Source: a virus
Length of the DNA stretch: 64,000 nt
Direction: 5' to 3' (one strand)
IMG/VR virus record: IMGVR_UViG_3300021067_000006
Coordinates: 1-64,000 of that record
This document shows positions 6,342 through 48,288 of the stretch, piece by piece; positions within the stretch are counted from its first letter, which is position 1; each line of letters starts with the position of its first letter. The notes beneath the pieces were generated by a model. That model searched no databases. It had not been told where the DNA came from and saw only the letters and a program-made list of their open reading frames with translations. The position numbers and the translations under genes were made by a program.

Positions 6342-7736
6342 CTAGCCGCTGAGCGCGTGCTCGATGATGACGGCGCGCTTGAAGCGCTCGGGTCCGCCGC
6401 TCACGACGTCGCTCGGCACCGCGAACGCCGTCGTGATCGACCAGCTCGACGACACGATGTCCTGCAACCGGTTGAGCGGCGCGCGGAGGATGAGCCGCAC
6501 GTGCTCCGTCTGCACCTCGAGTCCGGCGTTGACGACCTGGAAATCACCGACCTTTCCGGTGATGCCGGCCTCGGTCACGTAGTTGCTCTCGTCGAGGTAC
6601 TTCTCGACCAGCGCGCCGCGGCCCGTGACCAGGATGCGACCGATACCGACGCCGCTCTCGTTCGTCGTCTCCGCGCCGATGTCCTCGGAGTACGCGGCCA
6701 TCGTGCCCGTCGTCGTGCGCGGCCCTGAGTTGCTCGCGTCCGGCGTTTCGTTGTTCAGGAAGAACGAGAGACCTGCGATCGACCCGATGAATGCGTCCTG
6801 GAAAACGCCGTCGGGCATCGAGGTGTTGAGCCGCTGAATGATCGGGTCGGTGAAAATCTGCGCGTTGCCGTCGGTCGAAATGTGCGCGTGATACGTGCCG
6901 TCTTCGTGCGGGGGAACGTTGTTCTTCCGCAAGTAACTCGTCGCCGCGATGGCGTCCTGCAGCTGGAACACGTCGCTCATTCCGAGCGCGTCGACGCTGA
7001 GCCCGCCGCCCGAGCGGATGATCTTCGGGCGCGCGCTCGACAGCACCGGCGCGCGCACCGCGACGATTGCGCCGACCGCAGCGCTGAGCATCAGCGTGCC
7101 CGGGCCGAACGGATCGTCGGGATTGTCGAGGTCGTAGCCGATGACGTTGCGCGTGATCGCGGTCGCGCCGCTCTGAATCGTGATCGACAGCGGCGTGTTC
7201 GAGCTCACGAGCGACGGCCGCACATTGGTGCCCTTGACCACGACGTCGGTGAAGCCGTTCACGCTCGCGACGCGGATCGCGGTGTCGGCTGCCGCGGTCG
7301 CCGCGATGAGGTTCGTGTGCCCGCTCAGGTACTCGCGATGCAGGATGTTTCGTGGGATGCGGTTCAACGACATGCCCGCCTGCAGCCCGAGCTGATGAAT
7401 GTTTCGCAGGAACAGGTTGACGTTCGCCACCGCCGCCGTCGGCATGTGCGTGTCGATGGTGCCGGCGTACCGCGCGAGCCGCGCGACCCACTGCTCGTAA
7501 GACACCGTCTGCGGCTGCGGATCGGTGCCCGGCTGTAACGGCTTCGTGATCGCGGGCAGCAAGCCCGGCCGAGTCATGAAAATCTCGGTGCCGGTGTTGG
7601 CTTCCCATTCCTCCTGCACCGCTTCGCTGCGATACAGAAGTTGCGGGTAGAGGCCGTCATGGAAGGCGCGCTCCATAAGGCCCTGCTGCACGACGTTGAG
7701 AACTGACGACGGTACGCCGAGCACTAGTTGTGTCAT
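6342..7736 (-). CDS. major capsid protein
   Basis: 464 aa after scaffold, strong AGGAG RBS; 'YHAHISTD', 'FIGSIAGLSFF', 'RAPLNRLQDIVSSSW' fit an HK97-fold MCP. Confidence 0.8.
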   Translation of the reverse strand: MTQLVLGVPSSVLNVVQQGLMERAFHDGLYPQLLYRSEAVQEEWEANTGTEIFMTRPGLLPAITKPLQPGTDPQPQTVSYEQWVARLARYAGTIDTHMPTAAVANVNLFLRNIHQLGLQAGMSLNRIPRNILHREYLSGHTNLIAATAAADTAIRVASVNGFTDVVVKGTNVRPSLVSSNTPLSITIQSGATAITRNVIGYDLDNPDDPFGPGTLMLSAAVGAIVAVRAPVLSSARPKIIRSGGGLSVDALGMSDVFQLQDAIAATSYLRKNNVPPHEDGTYHAHISTDGNAQIFTDPIIQRLNTSMPDGVFQDAFIGSIAGLSFFLNNETPDASNSGPRTTTGTMAAYSEDIGAETTNESGVGIGRILVTGRGALVEKYLDESNYVTEAGITGKVGDFQVVNAGLEVQTEHVRLILRAPLNRLQDIVSSSWSITTAFAVPSDVVSGGPERFKRAVIIEHALSG

Positions 7737-37220: not shown

Positions 37221-37385
37221 TCATTGCTGCTTGAGCCCGGAGAAAGCCGGCAGACCCGAGCGATCGACGAAGCCGACGCGCAGCGCGTTCGCCGCTTCTT
37301 CCATGATGTTCGCCGCGTCGAACTGGCCGTCGGCGCGGAGGTTACGGGCCGTCGTCTCGAGAAACGTGATGTGCTTCGTGGTCAT
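37221..37385 (-). CDS. 54-aa first gene of early cassette 1 (not in ORF track)
   Basis: AGGAG RBS; MTTKHITFLETTARNLRADG... Confidence 0.55.
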   Translation of the reverse strand: MTTKHITFLETTARNLRADGQFDAANIMEEAANALRVGFVDRSGLPAFSGLKQQ

Positions 37386-37393
37386 CTTTCGAA

Positions 37394-37487
37394 CTCCTAC
37401 CGGCTCAGCGCCGGGGTTACCGCCGCCGGCTCAGCGCCAGCGACAGAAGAGAGCATGGTCTATCTTGCGCTAGCGCGCAACCGAAAA
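37394..37487 (-). promoter_or_regulatory. early promoter cassette 1 with twin GCUGA hairpins
   Basis: TTGCGC(37475-80)-N17-CATGCT(37452-57); hairpins 37426-40 and 37400-14. Confidence 0.8.
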
Positions 37488-38085
37488 GCGAACACCGGTC
37501 ACGGGTCAACCTGAAACCCGCTCGGTTTGCTCCTGCAACGCGGCGCGTGCCTCGGCCCGCGAACCGTAGCGGCGAGCGCTGTCCGGCTCGGTGCCTCGGT
37601 ACACGAGCCAAACGGCACCCGTCGACTCGATAATCGCGAGCCGGTCCGATGGTTCGTGCTCCGAACCGTCCGACCAGTCCCAGGCGCCGCGCCGGTCGAG
37701 CAGGTCGGCCAGCGCGCGCGAGGGGTCTTCGTCTTCGTCGAACTGGTCGAGGATGGCGTCGACCGCGTTGCGATCTAGGGCGCGTGCCATCGTCACTCCG
37801 CCGCCTTTCGCCCGGCCGACACGAGCTCACGGCACGCGCGGCGGAAGTCGGCATCGCTGAGCCGGTGCAGCTCGGCGAGCAGAGCGCCGGTCATCCAGTA
37901 GTCGGGCGAGCCTCCCCACGAATCGAGCACGCCGTCCGCCTCGCGCGGCACGAGCGTTATCTCGCCGTCGATGCTGCGCTCACCGAGCCGCACCGTCACG
38001 TCGATGTCGACCGCGCCCTCGATGTCGATGCAGCTGCTCGGCGTCACCGCGCTCGCGTCGACCTCGATCACGAACTCGGCGTCCA

Positions 38086-38640
38086 TCACGCGCTCCGCTT
38101 CTGCGACGCAGCCGCGTTCGCCCGGTATGCATCGAGGAACTGCGAGACGAGCAGGTCGCCGAACACGACGCTCGGCAGCATCGTCATCGAGTAGTCGTCG
38201 CCGTGCTGACCGCAGCGACCGATCCACAGCACGCGCCCCTTGTAATCCGGGAACGCCTTCGACAGCTCGGCCGCGAGCTTCAAGCCCTCATCGCTCGCAG
38301 GCAGCGTCACGAAACGGCGCGTATCGATGCCGCGGCATTCGCTGTACCGGCCGCCGATCGCCTTCACCTTGCGCGCCCAGCCCTTGCGGGTGAAGTCGGG
38401 CGAGCCGTCGAGATGCAGCTCGACCTGCAGCGGACGCTCAGCGAGCTGCGCGCGCGTGCGCTCGAGCTCGCGACGCTTGCGCGCGTGCCGAAACACGTCG
38501 GCGCTGTGCTGCAACAGCATCGCGTCGATCCGCTCGATGAAGCTGCCGACATACAGGCCGGCGTTCGCACGCTGCTGCAGCATCGCGCGCAGGTGTTGGG
38601 CGTCACGGTGGTCGAACGAGATGTACGAGGTAGGCATCAA
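38086..38640 (-). CDS. hypothetical early protein
   Basis: first gene after cassette 2. Confidence 0.55.
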   Translation of the reverse strand: MMPTSYISFDHRDAQHLRAMLQQRANAGLYVGSFIERIDAMLLQHSADVFRHARKRRELERTRAQLAERPLQVELHLDGSPDFTRKGWARKVKAIGGRYSECRGIDTRRFVTLPASDEGLKLAAELSKAFPDYKGRVLWIGRCGQHGDDYSMTMLPSVVFGDLLVSQFLDAYRANAAASQKRSA

Positions 38641-38644
38641 GGGA

Positions 38645-38740
38645 ACCTTTCCGCCGGCTCAGCGCCAGGCAACGTCGACCGGCTCAGCACCAGCGACGAA
38701 AGAGAGCATGGTTCATCATGCGTCAGCACGCAACCGAAAA
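38645..38740 (-). promoter_or_regulatory. early promoter cassette 2 with twin GCUGA hairpins
   Basis: TTGCGT(38728-33)-N17-CATGCT(38705-10); hairpins 38679-93 and 38654-68. Confidence 0.8.
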
Positions 38741-39234
38741 GCGACAGCCCATTCGTCTGCAGCCTCTTTCGACTCGAACACGAGCAGGGTAGCCTTGAGC
38801 CGACCGGCCCGGGCGTCGATGAGCAGGCGCTCGAGCATCACGACCGGCTCGGCCGGCACAGACCCCGGCACGGTCGACGCGGGCAGCGCGGCGCTCGGCA
38901 CCGATATGCATCCGCGCGATTCCAAACTTGCCCGTGCACGCGCCTCGGCCGCCTCGAGGTGCGCGCGCAGCTCGGGCTCGACCGCCACGCGGTTCGCGAC
39001 GCGGCGCTCGGCCGATGCCACCGACGAATGGTCGCGCAGCATCTGCCGCCCCGTCTCCGATTGCGACAGCCCGAGCCTGCGGCAGAGATAGATCGCAAAC
39101 GCGCGCGCGTTGAACAGCGCCGGAGAACGCGCGAGCGGCGAGTTGTGCGGCACGATGACAGCGCTCGTGACACCGAGCGCGGCGAGCACCGCGTCGCGCA
39201 CCGCGCTCGGTTCGAGCCCTAGCTGAGCAGCCAT
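38716..39234 (-). CDS. DnaA C-terminal-like helix-turn-helix protein
   Basis: 'ARAFAIYLCRRLGLSQSETGRQMLRDHSSV' matches the DnaA domain IV pattern. Confidence 0.7.
   Translation of the reverse strand: MAAQLGLEPSAVRDAVLAALGVTSAVIVPHNSPLARSPALFNARAFAIYLCRRLGLSQSETGRQMLRDHSSVASAERRVANRVAVEPELRAHLEAAEARARASLESRGCISVPSAALPASTVPGSVPAEPVVMLERLLIDARAGRLKATLLVFESKEAADEWAVAFRLRADA
38905..38926. repeat. 22-bp palindrome copy 5
   Basis: TATGCATCCGCGCGATTCCAAA. Confidence 0.8.
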
Positions 39235-40832
39235 CGCGGCTCCCCCATGAACGGCCGCGGCATCGGCGCGAACACGAATAGCTCGAGCTCGGTAGAGACG
39301 AACACGTCTTCGCTCAGCAGCAGCAACGCACACGCGGCGCAGCAAGGCAGGTCGCCGAAGGCGAGCGCGACCGCCGGGTCGCCGCACTCGCCGTCGGTGT
39401 CGACGTCGACGATCATCTCGCAGGTGCGCATCACGGATCGAGCCTCACATCGACGGACCCCGGCACCACGCGCGCGCCGAACCGACCGACTAGCTCGCGC
39501 GCGACTTCGTCATAGATCCACGGCGCACCCGGCGACCAGCGCACCAGGCGCCGCGTGCCGCTCTGCCCGTGCAGCCGGAACGAGATGACGTGCCGATACC
39601 AGGGCACTCCCTCAACGATCTGGTACGGCCGGCGCGTGCGGCGAACGCGTGTCACGCGCACACCTCGTCGACGGTTCCAAGCGCGGGCTCGCAGCGCGAG
39701 CGCGCCGTGCGCGCGAACACGAAGCCCGCGGCGTCGACCTCGAGGCAGACCTCGCACGCGGGCGGCGGCCGGTCATTCACCTCGAACGCATCGGCGCGCT
39801 CGTGAACGAACGCGCCGCGCCCCGACCGCGCCGCGGCGTGCGCCTCGCCGATCGCGAGTCTCAGAGCCTCAAGCGCCATGCCCCTCATGATGCGTCCCTC
39901 ACGATCGCAGCTAGCAGCCGACGTTCGCTCTCGAGCGCGGCACTCGCCTCGGGCGGCGGCGGCAGCGTCGGCGCCTCGCGGTCGCGGTACGTGTCGAGCC
40001 GCGCGCGCAGCACCGACGACAGCCGCTGCAGCCGGTCGCGCCGCGTCTTCGCAGCAGCCATCTCGATCGAGCCGGGCAGCGCATGGATCACGCCCTGCAG
40101 CACGCCGACCCGTGCGCGTTGTACCTGAGCGTAAACGGCCGTCACGACCTCGCGGTCATCGAGCTCGAGCGCGAGCGCTGCCTCGTTCTCGAGCATGATG
40201 ACGTCTTCGAAGCGCCTCACGACAGACCCCCGAAAACGCGCGGGTTGCTCTCAACCTCGCGCCGCGCGTTGGCGACAGCTTCCTCGACGGTCGCACCGCT
40301 GCCGATGACCGTGTCCTCGAACCACACCGCGAACGGCTGCACCGTGTCGTCGTCCTCGACGTGCAGCTCGCAGCCGGGAAGGAACGACAGGTCGGGCGAG
40401 AGCGCCGGCCAATAGAAGAACGCCGTGCGGTCAGGGCCGACCGTGCACGCGAACGAGTACGCGGCGGGGAGGCTCTGTTGATAGGCGAGCAGCATCGCGC
40501 GCGCGACGTGCATCGGATCGGTGATGCGGATACACGGCGCCGCCGTGCGGTTGTCCATCACCTGCCACTGCGCCGCGAGCCCTGCCTGCTCGAGCAGCGC
40601 GAACAGCTGCTGCGCCGGACTCACAGCGCACCCCGGCCGGAGTAGCGGACGCCCTCGGTGAGGAGCCAGCACACGTACGAGTCGTACGTGAGCACGTCGT
40701 TGCGACGCAGCTCGGCGTCGACATACGCGGCGTACTGCGTGTTGATCGCGGGCGCGGCATCAGCCGGCGCCGGAACCGTGACGAAAGATTGGGTCGTCGT
40801 CGGCGCGGGAATCGTGGTGAACATCGGGCAAT

Positions 40833-40925
40833 CTCCTCCCCCGGCTCAGCGCCGGGCTCGTCGTCGGCTCAGCGCCGTCGACACAACTGAGCATGCAGCA
40901 TCATGCGCCGACGCGCAACTAAAAA
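40833..40925 (-). promoter_or_regulatory. early promoter cassette 3 with twin GCUGA hairpins
   Basis: TTGCGC(40913-18)-N17-CATGCT(40890-95); hairpins 40861-81 and 40841-55; GGAGGAG RBS. Confidence 0.8.
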
Positions 40926-42174
40926 GTGTGCGGCGCGCGCGACCCCTCGAAAAGACGTGCGCACAACGCACACACCCACACTTCGGCCGCCGGGTCCCGC
41001 CGACCATCCGAGCAGCGCGACTCGAACAGCGGCTCGGCCGGCACCGCAGCGACCATCACGCGCCGGCACGGCGCACAGAACACGGGACCGCCGTGCGGCA
41101 CGAGCCATCCGACGATGAGGCACGAGCGCCCACCGAACACGCGGCCCGCCTCGACAGCCGACAGCCCACCGCCCGTGTTCGGTGACACCGGGCCAAAGCA
41201 GTCGACCTTGCTCGGTTGCCAGGCGAACAGGTCGAGCTGCCGATCGGACACCACGCGGCGCGACATCACTCCCGCAGCAGCACCGCCACCGCGCGCAGGC
41301 GCTCGGCGCGCCGCTCGAGTTGCTCTGCGCGCCGGTTGCCCGAGCCCTTGAGCTGCTGCTCGATGAGCTCAGCGAGCCGCTCGGCAAGCTGCGACGGGGC
41401 GAGCACAGCCGCAGCTTCGACGTCACCGATCACGCTCTCGACCACCCGCGCTTTCGTGACCCACTGGTCGGGCTTTTCGGGGTCGTCGTGCCAAACACCG
41501 CTTCGTGCGATCGACGCGAAGCGCCCATCGTCGAGCAGGTAGAGACGCTCGCCACCGAGCGAACCGCTGTCGTCGCCGGGCCCCTCGGTAAACCCATCTT
41601 CGAGCAGCACGCCGCGCGGCTCACGCGGATCAGCGTACATCCGTTCCTCTTGCCCACGAGCTCGCCGCATGCCCGCGACTTGAATCGCCGAGCAGAGCGC
41701 GGGCAGCGCCGGACGCACCGCCTCGACGATCGCGCGCATCGCGTCGCCCGCCGCACGCTCGGCCTCGGCACCCGCGGCGAGCTTCCGATCGTGCTGCGCC
41801 GCGAGCTCTTCGACTTGTCTCTTGCTGGTCATCGTCGTGCATCCTGAGTCGTGGTCGTCGCGCGCGCCGCTCACCCTGGCCTCGTCGGCTCGTCTTCGGA
41901 CATGAGCGCCTGAGCGCGCGCATCCTGCAGCGACGTGAGCGAGCGACCGCTGCGCACGCAAACGCCGTCGACGTAGAAGCTCGCGACGTAAACGCCGTTG
42001 CGCTTCGACGTGCGCACGCACGCCGTATCGCCGTGCTGGTCGAGCCATTCCATCTCGCGCCTGCAGGTCTCTGCGTTGCGCTCTGCGACCATGCGATGCA
42101 CGCGCTCCTGCACACTCTCGATCGAAACCGGGGCGCCGTTCGCCGAACGCCGATAGTTGCCGTCCATTGGGGGG

Positions 42175-42262
42175 AACCTTTCATGCCGCTCAGCGCGGCG
42201 TGTGAAACCGAGCTCAGCGCCCGGCGAGAGTCGACACTAGCTCATGATGCTCCGACGCGCAA
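42175..42262 (-). promoter_or_regulatory. early promoter cassette 4 with twin GCUGA hairpins
   Basis: TTGCGC(42257-62)-N17-TAGTGT(42234-39); hairpins 42208-24 and 42185-99. Confidence 0.75.
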
Positions 42263-42846
42263 GCTATTCGCTCTCACCGGGCGGAAGCGCGGGCATAGCC
42301 GCCGGTGCTTCCGCCACCTCGACGCCTGCAGCGTCGACCACACCCGGGTCGGGCATGCGCACAAGCATCAGCCGCACGCGGTCGAGCAGCCCAGTGCCCG
42401 GCACCCGCGCTTTCTCGAGCGCGGTCTGCGCCTCGATCGCTTCCGTCATCAGCCGCGTCGCAGCTTCAGCCTGCCGCTGCGCGACGGGCATGTCGCCCGA
42501 CAGCGCACGCACGGCGCGCATGAACGCCGTCACGACGATGCCCTCGAGCTGCGTGACACGCTTGCCTAACAACGCATTCCGCTCTTCTAGCTGCTGAAGT
42601 TTCCGAGCTTCCTGCCACGCGTTCCGTGAACGCTCGACGTCACCGCGTTGCTTGGCCTCGAGCAAATTGAGCGCACGCGCCGCGAAGCTGAGCTCGACAC
42701 GCGCAGCCTCCGAAGTTCCAGCGACGAGCGGGCGCGCGCGTTCTTCGAGCTCGAGCAGCTCACGACGCAAACGCTCGAGCTCGGAGCTCGGCTCGATGAT
42801 CGCGTTCGTCGGCGGCAGTAGTTTCGGCACGTCCGCCATGATGCCG

Positions 42847-43698
42847 TCACCGCTCTGCGATCTGCGCGGCGATGCTCTCCGCCGCACTCGTCCCGTAGTA
42901 ATCGCGCCCGGCGCGCAGCATGCCGCTCGCGCGTGCCTGCTCGCGCGCCATCCATGCAGCCATCAACGTGTCGCCCGTGTGCGCGTTCGGTGTGTACGCG
43001 AGCAGGTCGTCGACGAACGTCTGCACGCCCGGCGCGCAGCGCCCGCGCTCGTCCGCGGGGATGAGCCATGCACCGTTCTCGAGCTCAACGAGCAGCGACT
43101 CGACGCCGAACAGCGGGTTGCGCTTGTTGCGTGCAGACGTCTCGTGCGAGCGCACGCGCAGCGTCGCGTCGAGCTCGAGCGACCACTGCCTGAGGTAGTC
43201 CTGGAACGCGTTCGTCTCGATGCGCACGATCGACTCAAACCGATCGTGATGCGACCGCACGAGCTCGATGAGCGCGCGACCGCCCATGCGCCCCGAGTTG
43301 ACGTCGAGCACGAGGCGACGATTATCAGCGAGCACGGCGAACGTGAACACCGAGCAAAGGTCCGACCCCTTCCGGCGCGACGCGGCGAGGTCGACGCCGG
43401 TGAACGCACCGCCCCGTTCCCATCGCGCCTGCGGTCGGTCGTAGTCGAGCTCGCGCGCGCGTGCTTTCGCCGCTCGGATCCATTCGTCTTTGACGCGCGC
43501 GCTCGTGTCGTCGCGCGTCCGGTTGCCGTACGCACGCGCGAACTCCGAGCCGCCGCCCATCATCGTGCGGATCTCAACGAGCTTCTCGCGCGGGAACTTG
43601 CCCGGCCAAAGCGGCACGATGTCGTGCGCGTCGACCCAGCCAGCGCTCTCCGACGCCACAAGCGCCGCATCGCTCGGCGACAGCGCCGCTGGTTTCAC
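42847..43698 (-). CDS. terminase large subunit, C-terminal nuclease part
   Basis: 'PLWPGKF','FTGVDLA','IETNAFQ','HTGDTLMAAWMA'. Confidence 0.8.
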   Translation of the reverse strand: MKPAALSPSDAALVASESAGWVDAHDIVPLWPGKFPREKLVEIRTMMGGGSEFARAYGNRTRDDTSARVKDEWIRAAKARARELDYDRPQARWERGGAFTGVDLAASRRKGSDLCSVFTFAVLADNRRLVLDVNSGRMGGRALIELVRSHHDRFESIVRIETNAFQDYLRQWSLELDATLRVRSHETSARNKRNPLFGVESLLVELENGAWLIPADERGRCAPGVQTFVDDLLAYTPNAHTGDTLMAAWMAREQARASGMLRAGRDYYGTSAAESIAAQIAER

Positions 43699-44642
43699 AG
43701 CGCCCCCGCGCGCATCTCTTCGGCGGCTTGCTCGATGAGCTCACGCCGATCATTCGCGACGAGTCGATGCACTCCCGAGTCGCCGCCGATGAGCGACGGT
43801 CGAATGTCGGGCGAATCGAAGTCGTCGGCGTTCTTGAAAAAGACGTTGCCCCACGCGTCCATGCTGCAGCTCGGCCATCCGATTTTCTCGAGCTCGTACG
43901 TGACATCCTCCGGATGCCATGGCGTGTTCGTCACGCAGCAGCGCGCGCCCTTCTCGCCGAGCCGCGTGACCACCGTCGAAAGTACCCACTTGTTTACCTT
44001 GCGACGCTGCTCCGCGGTGCTCGTGTTCTGCTCATCGAGGATGTCGTCGACGTTCGCCCAGTTCAGGCGCGAGCCCGGTAGGCGCTTGCTATCGAGCCCG
44101 AGCGCGACGCACGATGGATCGCGAATGCCGTACGGTCGATCGATCGTGATGGCCGTCTGCGTCCACGGCTCTCCGTCGCGCTGCGTCGGCAGAAGCTGCG
44201 GGTAAACGAGCCGGAGCTCCGGGCTATCCTCGATGTACGAACGCACGGCGAGCAGCGGCTTGCTCGCCTGATCTTCGCTGCTCGAGATGAACGCGCCGCG
44301 CGTCGTCTTGCTTTTCCCGAGCTGCCACAACGTGAGCCCAGTCATGCAGAACGACTTAGAAAACCCGACGGGCAAACGCAGCACCGTAAACGGGTAGTGC
44401 CGCACGAAGTCGAACAGCACGCGCTGATGCGGCAGCGTCACGATACGCACGCGCGTTGTCTCCTCGCGCATCACGTACCCAAAAAAGTGCTTTGGGCTCT
44501 CACGCGCGAGCGCGACGCGCCGCATGTTCCACTCGACTAGCAGCCGCTCCTCATCCGACAGCGCGGCGAGCCGCGAGAACGGCGCGCCGCGCGGCGGGTT
44601 GTGAATGCTGTCGAGGTACTGCTCGGGGCTCGGCTGTGCCAT
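43695..44642 (-). CDS. terminase large subunit, N-terminal ATPase part
   Basis: 'LPHQ', Walker A-like 'LPVGFSKS', Walker B 'ANVDDILD', motif III 'VTNTPWH'. Confidence 0.85.
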   Translation of the reverse strand: MAQPSPEQYLDSIHNPPRGAPFSRLAALSDEERLLVEWNMRRVALARESPKHFFGYVMREETTRVRIVTLPHQRVLFDFVRHYPFTVLRLPVGFSKSFCMTGLTLWQLGKSKTTRGAFISSSEDQASKPLLAVRSYIEDSPELRLVYPQLLPTQRDGEPWTQTAITIDRPYGIRDPSCVALGLDSKRLPGSRLNWANVDDILDEQNTSTAEQRRKVNKWVLSTVVTRLGEKGARCCVTNTPWHPEDVTYELEKIGWPSCSMDAWGNVFFKNADDFDSPDIRPSLIGGDSGVHRLVANDRRELIEQAAEEMRAGAL

Positions 44643-47601: not shown

Positions 47602-48288
47602 GCGACCAGCCTATCAGGCGTTGAAGTTTTGCGCGACGCCCGTGCCCAACGTCAGCTTGCGCGCGGGAAAGCAGTAACCGACCTCCTGCGGCAACTCACG
47701 GCGCAGCACCAGGTCGACCGCGTCGAGCAGGTTGAAGTCGTGCTGACGCTGATTCTGCCACCGCACGTAACAGCCAAGGCACCACACGCCGACGTCGATG
47801 AGCCGCGGCGCCTCGCGTACCAAGCGCGGCCCTCGCCGGCACTGCCTCACCCTGCGCAGCGGCAACGCCTCGGCGTCGTACAACTCGACCTCGACGCAGG
47901 TCTGCCCGTCAATCTCGGAACGCTGCGCTTGAATGAGATACCGCGAACAGATCGCCGGCGCCTGCCTCGGCACCTCGAGCAACAGCGTCCCGTGCCGACC
48001 GACCACACGGTATATCGGCACGGCGTCGATCACGGCGTACCCCATGCGCGAGCACGCAACGCGAGCACCGAACCGAGCGCATGCACTTCGATGCGAACGA
48101 ACGCCACGACGCGACCGCGTCGCATGGCATACGCGCCACACGCGACGCAGCGTGCGACGCGCGCTGCTGTAAGCGGCCTCGAGCAGTACGGGCACAGGGT
48201 CGTCGGCATTCCGGCGCATCTTGCCCGACAGCGCGAACGCGCATCAAGAGCAGAAACGCAACGCGCTGGAAAATTGGGGGTGTAAGTC

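Follow-up and report, generated by a model that had tools for sequence, protein, structure and literature searches.

Mobile regulatory cassettes called promoter-early stem-loops (PeSLs) have been described in T4-type phages (Arbiol et al. 2010, PMC2839356; Comeau et al. 2014, PMC4122927); they combine a sigma-70-like promoter, an A/T tract and a G+C stem-loop, and stand before ORFans in hyperplastic regions (PMC2839356). Phage leader hairpins with a defined loop are also known as boxB elements, whose loops are pentaloops in lambda and P22 and a hexaloop in phi21 (PMC12550061). We analysed the virus record IMGVR_UViG_3300021067_000006 (90,837 bp; tailed phage G000), whose first 64 kb are the window, i.e., the whole stretch of DNA under study; window and genome coordinates coincide up to 64,000. 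The genome contains five promoter-like cassettes, four in the window (E1–E4) and one just outside it (E5, at ~66,090), all read on the minus strand and all carrying short hairpins with the loop GCUGA. We tentatively propose, at slightly less than an even chance, that they are PeSL-like promoter-leader cassettes whose 5'-proximal hairpins, as cis sites defined by their loops, bring the stability and/or translation of the message under post-transcriptional control.

Each cassette follows one order: an A/T tract, the hexamer TTGCGY, exactly 17 nucleotides (nt), the hexamer YAKKST, the GCUGA-loop hairpin or hairpins, a Shine–Dalgarno (SD) sequence and a start codon. The first-pass annotation of the window had described four intergenic elements of a single design, and all four lie on the minus strand where it had placed them. 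TTGCG(C/T)-17 nt-(CATGCT/TAGTGT), a pattern derived post hoc, has 4 matches in the window versus 0.19 expected by chance. In E1 (37383..37493), a T-tract is followed by the -35 box TTGCGC (37480-37475), which lies in the dyad TTGCGC-N4-GCGCAA, and by the -10 box CATGCT (37457-37452); the SD AGGAG (37398-37394) and the ATG (37385-37383) lead into a 54-aa ORFan. E2 (38635..38745) has a T-tract, the -35 box TTGCGT (38733-38728) and the -10 box CATGCT (38710-38705), with the SD GGAAAGG and the ATG (38637-38635) of a 183-aa ORFan. These two cassettes are ~84% identical over ~67 bp, from the T-tract through the first hairpin (hairpin a), and are unrelated beyond that point, before unrelated genes. 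E3 (40822..40930) consists of a T5 tract, the -35 box TTGCGC (40918-40913), the -10 box CATGCT (40895-40890), the SD GGAGGAG and the ATG (40824-40822) of a 67-aa ORFan; a terminator-like long hairpin followed by UUUUU (40921..40985, minus strand) abuts its -35 box, and a weaker hairpin of this kind precedes E1. E4 (42165..42275) begins directly after the stop codon of the gene that follows the large terminase, and has the -35 box TTGCGC (42262-42257), the -10 box TAGTGT (42239-42234), the SD GAAAGG and the ATG (42167-42165) of a 98-aa ORFan. E5 was found by a genome-wide scan; on the minus strand, it has its -35 box at genome 66090, the -10 box TAGGGT and a single CCGGC-GCUGA-GCCGG hairpin (66032-66046), and it heads a 522-aa DUF932 gene.

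The hairpins of the window come in pairs, all on the minus strand. In E1, hairpin a (37420..37446) has the core CUGGC-GCUGA-GCCGG (37440-37426), is extended to 11 bp and starts at about the predicted transcription start, and hairpin b (37400..37414), CCGGC-GCUGA-GCCGG, ends 14 nt before the ATG. Hairpin a of E2 (38678..38694) is (G)CUGGU-GCUGA-GCCGG(U), with two U.G pairs and a further extension CGUCG/CGACG, and is followed by hairpin b, CUGGC-GCUGA-GCCGG (38654..38668). E3 has CGGC-GCUGA-GCCG (40877-40865) as the core of hairpin a (40859..40883), extended by UGUCG/CGACG across an A.A mismatch, and CCCGGC-GCUGA-GCCGGG as hairpin b (40840..40856), the 3' arm of which runs into the SD. In E4, hairpin a (42207..42225), GCCGGGC-GCUGA-GCUCGGU, contains one G.U pair and has pair 4 switched to G-C, and hairpin b (42185..42199), GCCGC-GCUGA-GCGGC, has pairs 3 and 5 switched compensatorily. 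The eight loops, the stems and the loop-to-loop spacings of 26, 25, 23 and 24 nt were thus as first annotated, and the covariation of the stems was also borne out. The further statement that the linkers are unrelated stood only in part: in E1–E3, the first bases of the linker base-pair with a conserved GUCG located right behind the -10 box, and the linkers otherwise differ. When the predicted leaders were folded, this pairing lengthened hairpin a of E1–E3 to about 10 bp, and a transcript starting ~7 nt after the -10 box would have its 5' end paired in these three cassettes; hairpin b stood beside the SD. The leader folding energies are unexceptional for this G+C content (z -0.6 to -2.3). In the E5 leader (genome 65998-66062, minus strand; z = -2.3), pairing is possible between GUCUCUUGU at the 5' end and GCAAGAGAU, a stretch ending at the start codon; the GCUGA hairpin would then be enclosed and the start region masked.

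Covariation was assessed in an alignment of nine hairpins, namely the eight of the window and the single hairpin of E5. Of their 45 stem cells, 44 pair, or 97.8%, and compensatory double changes occur at three of the five pairs; this covariation was reached by 0–1 of 500 shuffles, and pairing fell to 18–56% when the partner arm was slid. None of the 45 loop bases varies in the nine hairpins, nor does the second stem pair, while the outer stems, spacers and linkers differ. Selection clearly acts on the loop sequence of the hairpin and not on its stem alone. Pairing was found in 44/45 cells on the sense strand versus 39/45 on the antisense strand, with five cells being G.U; since these wobble pairs fit the sense strand only, the fold belongs to that strand, either as RNA or as non-template DNA. 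An explanation by coding was rejected: translation across the hairpins yields short peptides that are alike in E1 and E3, but the frame is shifted by the spacings of 26, 25, 23 and 24 nt, and no such open reading frame (ORF) is present in E4 and E5.

The number of GCTGA-loop hairpins in the genome is not exceptional in itself. Against a Markov model, 13 were found versus 6.7 simulated for stems of at least 4 bp, and 10 versus 2.6 for stems of at least 5 bp, i.e., merely ~2–4 times chance, and the four copies outside the cassettes resemble background. Unlike this raw number, the placement of the nine hairpins cannot be given by chance: all are on the coding strand within five leaders of ~90 nt, eight of them are in pairs 23–26 nt apart, and they lie 7–15 nt after the promoter-like box and 14–18 nt before the start codon. 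A covariance model (R1) scored the nine hairpins at 22.5–29.1 bits and the next best site at 18.2 bits in the genome plus 200 kb of relatives, and it found no tenth copy. The cassette hairpins had no match in Rfam at the gathering threshold or at E values up to 10.

We then compared the cassettes with those of a relative, IMGVR_UViG_3300043446_003867 (G001; 89 kb), which was found by a search with the large terminase (TerL); it shares 49% TerL identity and 66% head-protein identity with G000 and is syntenic with it. G001 has no GCUGA hairpin. It does have 15 cassettes of analogous design with one hairpin each, laid out as follows: a terminator in many cases, a conserved promoter region that is G/T-rich and has TAYGNT at its end, 7–8 nt, a 5-bp hairpin, a purine-rich ribosome-binding site and an ATG. 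The hairpin lies 7–8 nt after the -10 box and 21 nt before the ATG, and terminator-like hairpins precede most of the cassettes. In 14 aligned G001 hairpins, 95.9% of the cells pair and double changes occur at four of the five pairs, with nine cells changed on both sides; none of 500 shuffles reached this covariation. The loop consensus is C-R-A-N-G-N, in which the A and the G are invariant across at least six different stems, and the commonest closing pair is U.G. The two phages each have a conserved loop of their own, indicating that each keeps its loop while the stems drift. Together with its closing C, the GCUGA loop (C-G-C-U-G-A) has five of its six positions in agreement with the G001 consensus. 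Common descent of the G000 and G001 cassettes is suggested by this agreement, by the common geometry from the -10 box to the hairpin and by the GU-rich start region. The spacer of all 15 G001 cassettes (26–38 kb) is a near-invariant G/T-rich run, GG(G/T)TT(C/T)GGGTTT(C/T)GG(T/G)TTA, which is unusual for sigma-70 and may be a protein site or a G-rich structure.

The cassettes of both genomes are confined to stretches that have no homolog in the other, at 34–42 kb after the terminase in G000 and at 26–38 kb before the terminase in G001. The genes behind the cassettes had no Pfam or PHROG match and no homolog in the relative, and the gene blocks behind four of the five cassettes consist of genes of unknown function. 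A role as cassettes of gene modules, which the first-pass annotation had also raised, agrees with this distribution, as they occur only in non-homologous ORFan regions of two syntenic phages, like the PeSLs of T4-type phages.

We consider that a leader RNA hairpin is the best reading of these elements because of their position, their sense-strand pairing and their covariation. A sigma-70-family holoenzyme, either the host's own or the host core polymerase with the phage sigma, would start transcription ~7 nt after YAKKST, and the nascent RNA would immediately form one or two short G+C hairpins. The first hairpin would sequester the 5' end of the message, and the last would end 14–18 nt short of the start codon, at the upstream margin of the ribosome-binding region. 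The GCUGA loop, closed by C-G, may be a sequence-specific docking site for a putative factor, most likely phage-encoded, that would control the stability and/or translation of the cassette messages as one set. The stems would shield the 5' end from 5'-end-dependent decay, and this protection is probably a built-in effect of the hairpins. GCUGA can be read as G-C-(U)-G-A, i.e., a GNRA fold whose third base points outwards, like that of the P22 boxB–N complex. In P22, the boxB loop GACAA adopts a GNRA fold and the N peptide contacts the looped-out third base (PMC12550061). Loop-specific recognition is preferred over mere stabilization since the loop is invariant in nine hairpins, a second copy stands by the SD and G001 has a conserved loop of its own.

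Several observations weigh against this proposal. All three double changes in the G000 stem come from one cassette, E4, and the within-genome sample is thin. The hexamers match TTGACA/TATAAT weakly and were not called by a generic promoter scanner; a second -10-like block, GCA(A/T)(G/C)AT, lies inside the spacer, and the true start could be ~12 nt further upstream. Searches for Arg-rich first genes, NusG, ANTAR and known RNA-binding families gave no candidate RNA-binding protein in either phage. The wider family also includes four complete genomes (G004, G005, G007 and G008) that have no such cassettes, indicating that the element is not required family-wide; these genomes also have no GCUGA hairpins outside genes. 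In addition, a plain stabilizing hairpin would explain the position and the covariation without any factor.

Stabilization of this plain kind, with 5'-terminal stems guarding leadered early mRNAs from 5'-end-dependent RNases and no factor reading the loop, is in our view rather unlikely; under it, the identity of the loops would reflect common descent or a favoured fold. Bacterial mRNAs are stabilized by 5'-terminal stem-loops, as in leaders of the ompA type. Here, hairpin a starts 0–5 nt from the predicted start and its extended stem takes in the 5' end, and the G001 hairpin starts 7–8 nt after the -10 box. Most other genes of the phage look leaderless, with a 5' end that would be covered by the ribosome, so that every message of the phage would be protected at its 5' end. 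However, stabilization leaves unexplained why 45 of 45 loop bases are invariant beside variable stems and unrelated linkers, why a second hairpin with the same loop stands beside the SD and why G001 has a separate loop consensus, shared by at least six stems that differ. Nor do the described families of stable or frequent pentaloops include GCUGA with a C-G closing pair (PMC9830547), and the loop has no occurrence in PMC9074901. As one possibility beside translational control, the first-pass annotation had taken the hairpins as sites of N/boxB-type processive antitermination, in which nascent hairpins recruit a phage protein and the modified RNA polymerase passes downstream terminators. There is a likeness in shape to boxB, as it pointed out: each of the nine hairpins combines a 5-bp stem with a pentaloop of the form G...A and lies shortly after a promoter-like box. 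A P22-type GN(n)RA reading of the loop is possible, loops are phage-specific as among lambdoid boxB elements, terminator-like hairpins occur between some cassettes and the second gene of E1 (37224-36919) has an Arg/Ala-rich N-terminus. Nevertheless, the latter protein has no homolog in G001, and the first genes after all cassettes of both phages have no Arg-rich, N-like motif and no Pfam or PHROG match. A conserved boxA (CGCUCUUA-like) was not found: GCUCUCUU occurs in E1 and E2 only, where it overlaps the -10 box, and E3–E5 have nothing comparable. No NusG/RfaH-like or ANTAR gene and no Rfam match were found, and natural nut sites are single, not twin. Nor is the proposed read-through of a region of >20 kb needed: behind E1–E4, the operons span only 1.2–2.1 kb, each under a promoter of its own, and E3 at least comes after a terminator-like hairpin that carries a U run. 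We regard antitermination as quite improbable.

Less probable still, and in our view very doubtful, are roles at the DNA level, in which the conserved GCGCTGAGC box is bound, as a duplex or as a non-template-strand hairpin of the open complex, by a phage regulator or an RfaH-like factor, or the repeats are recombination points. The gene of a regulator with two helix-turn-helix (HTH) motifs lies directly upstream of E5, and the box bears a loose resemblance to ops (GGCGGTAGC). The G001 version has no ops-like core, and the idea of ops and RfaH was dropped as no NusG-like gene was found in the phage. Compensatory stem changes and the five G.U cells favour a folded sense single strand over a duplex site, and the more obvious and likelier duplex operator would be the TTGCGC-N4-GCGCAA dyad over the -35 box. 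As for recombination, the stem-loops of PeSLs have been proposed as recombination sites (PMC2839356), and E1 and E2 are nearly alike in front of unrelated genes; identity of 15–19 bp is nevertheless short for homologous exchange. A hairpin promoter of the N4 type was also considered and rejected. The template strand pairs in 39/45 cells, with the wobbles becoming A.C mismatches, versus 44/45 for the sense strand; furthermore, the phage carries a sigma factor, and U.G is the commonest closing pair in G001. The genome had no match to a giant or T7-like RNA polymerase gene, with the control for the T7-like search being uninformative.

The phage encodes a sigma-70-family protein of ~216 aa (genome 63709-64359, minus strand) with a recognizable region 2 and no region-4 match; its gene lies downstream of E5 and the DUF932 gene, in the operon headed by E5, and the protein is conserved in G001 (7326-7610). 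A second promoter class, G-GCATCAT-N7-ATG/GTG, has no SD and no evident -35 box and precedes ~15–19 genes genome-wide on the minus strand, e.g., at window 47085, 45886, 42844, 39893, 34680, 33414, 28553 and 23375. This class probably represents -10-only promoters of leaderless mRNAs that serve most other genes. It occurs in relatives too (in L244 as GCGGCATCATCC...ATG). We infer that the cassette promoters are host-type early promoters, one of which turns on the phage sigma, which in turn serves the leaderless class. They are called early because they have a -35 box, E5 heads the sigma operon and most other genes are probably served by the -10-only leaderless class. All five -35 boxes form half of a TTGCGY-N4-RMGCA dyad; such dyads lie at window 37465-37480, 38718-38733, 40903-40918, 42247-42262 and 48044-48059, the last one being a sixth dyad without hairpins. 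The two-HTH protein (131 aa, with weak CII/Cro-like matches) is encoded just upstream of E5 at genome 66112-66507 on the minus strand, and the -35 dyad could be its operator.

The virus record has a G+C content of 68%, and almost all genes are on the minus strand. Its hallmark genes, all on this strand, include the large terminase in two ORFs (44642-43695 and 43698-42847), the portal (15963-13855), the major head protein (7736-6342) and a family-B DNA polymerase (62319-59878); helicases are likewise present. The large terminase (42847-44642) is split into an ATPase ORF of 315 aa and a nuclease ORF of 283 aa that overlap by 4 nt, and in G001 it is a single ORF of 546 aa (stretch L114:9938-11578). 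Matches of the polymerase to haloviruses had prompted the idea of an archaeal virus, which the sigma-70-family factor of the phage and its use of SD sequences led us to drop. Among 50,697 phage records, the 7.5-kb cassette region had no DNA match, and protein-level matches reached 23–34% identity only; no cultured phage is close. TerL searches of IMG/VR and metagenomes gave relatives that are at most 58% identical, and analogous cassettes were found only in G001. An IMG/VR scan for the twin motif returned chance matches and tandem repeats only, as did a scan for the single hairpin among the matches listed. The twin 11-mer had at least 120 matches in prokaryote genomes; among those listed, none was in a cassette-like context or hinted at the host, and almost all were direct repeats in tandem at the ends of genes of high-G+C bacteria. 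Homologs of the 522-aa DUF932 protein encoded behind E5 number >260 in metagenomes (36–53% identity); many of them lie on contigs of 82–100 kb, some of which bear terminal repeats. The phage is a member of a widespread uncultured family of ~90 kb. Relatives G004, G007, L244, L249 and L250 each have an abundant palindrome of their own of ~20 bp with a central ATCGAT-like core, e.g., ACGGATGATCGATCATCCG with 18 copies in G004, CCGTCGGTGATCGATCACCGACGG with 19 copies in G007 and GAAGCAGATCGATCTGCTTC in L244; these palindromes often adjoin GCATCAT promoters.

Cassettes of this general kind are usually treated as promoters plus terminators or as recombination scaffolds. That a related phage retains a different loop on a common design, beside the selection on loop and stem, bears the hallmark of a specific recognition partner. 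Should there be one, the cassettes would offer a compact, portable pair of RNA operator and binder, and a handle on the timing of accessory genes in an uncultured, widespread phage family. If there is none, they would be ordinary, well-documented PeSL-like modules with stabilizing leaders. It is possible, though on the unlikely side, that they belong to an undescribed system of phage RNA–protein control, in which a cognate factor reads the phage-specific loops (GCUGA here and CAANGN in G001) and either switches ORFan operons for host takeover post-transcriptionally or modifies the polymerase. Such a system might, with the same reserve, parallel the cognate pairs of N and boxB, but with tandem sites and no boxA, and its setting would be a new family of phages with their own sigma and otherwise leaderless mRNAs.

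Among known systems, ANTAR target RNAs also have two adjacent small hairpins in a 5' leader, with conserved loop positions and variable stems. Their loops are hexaloops with a conserved A1 and G4, and their second hairpin competes with a terminator. We rejected an ANTAR target, as the cassettes have GCUGA pentaloops and no overlapping terminator, the genome encodes no ANTAR domain and Rfam gave no match. Leaders of the ompA type likewise carry a hairpin at or a few nt from the mRNA 5' end, upstream of the SD, and the stems of the cassettes would begin within ~0–4 nt of the 5' end if transcription started 7 nt after YAKKST, as predicted; unlike the cassette hairpins, those of ompA-type leaders are single and need no specific loop sequence. 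The boxB elements of lambda, P22 and phi21 resemble the cassette hairpins in their short stem and G...A loop, in their position in nascent RNA just after an early-type promoter and in a loop that differs between related phages. However, G-C-U-G-A is not GNRNA and fits only the P22-type reading (as GACAA) with the third base looped out, and the cassettes differ from N/nut systems in their twin sites and in having neither a consistent boxA or N-like protein nor a long terminator-studded operon. PeSLs share with the cassettes the repeated unit of an A/T-rich tract, a promoter that is here sigma-70-like by its letters only, and a G+C stem-loop, found ahead of ORFans where genomes that are syntenic elsewhere become variable (5 copies in G000 and 15 in G001), with some units combined with terminators. 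As to recombination between copies, which has been proposed for PeSLs, the identity of E1 and E2 is the only feature of the cassettes that would bear on it, and the searches gave no relative near enough for an exchange to be seen. PeSL stem-loops serve as terminators, vary in their position relative to the promoter and show no conservation of the loop, whereas the hairpins of the cassettes always lie in the predicted transcribed leader, have no U run, are mostly paired and combine an invariant loop with covarying stems. Repeated promoter and stem-loop cassettes before phage ORFans are known; what is new here is the twin hairpins with an invariant loop.

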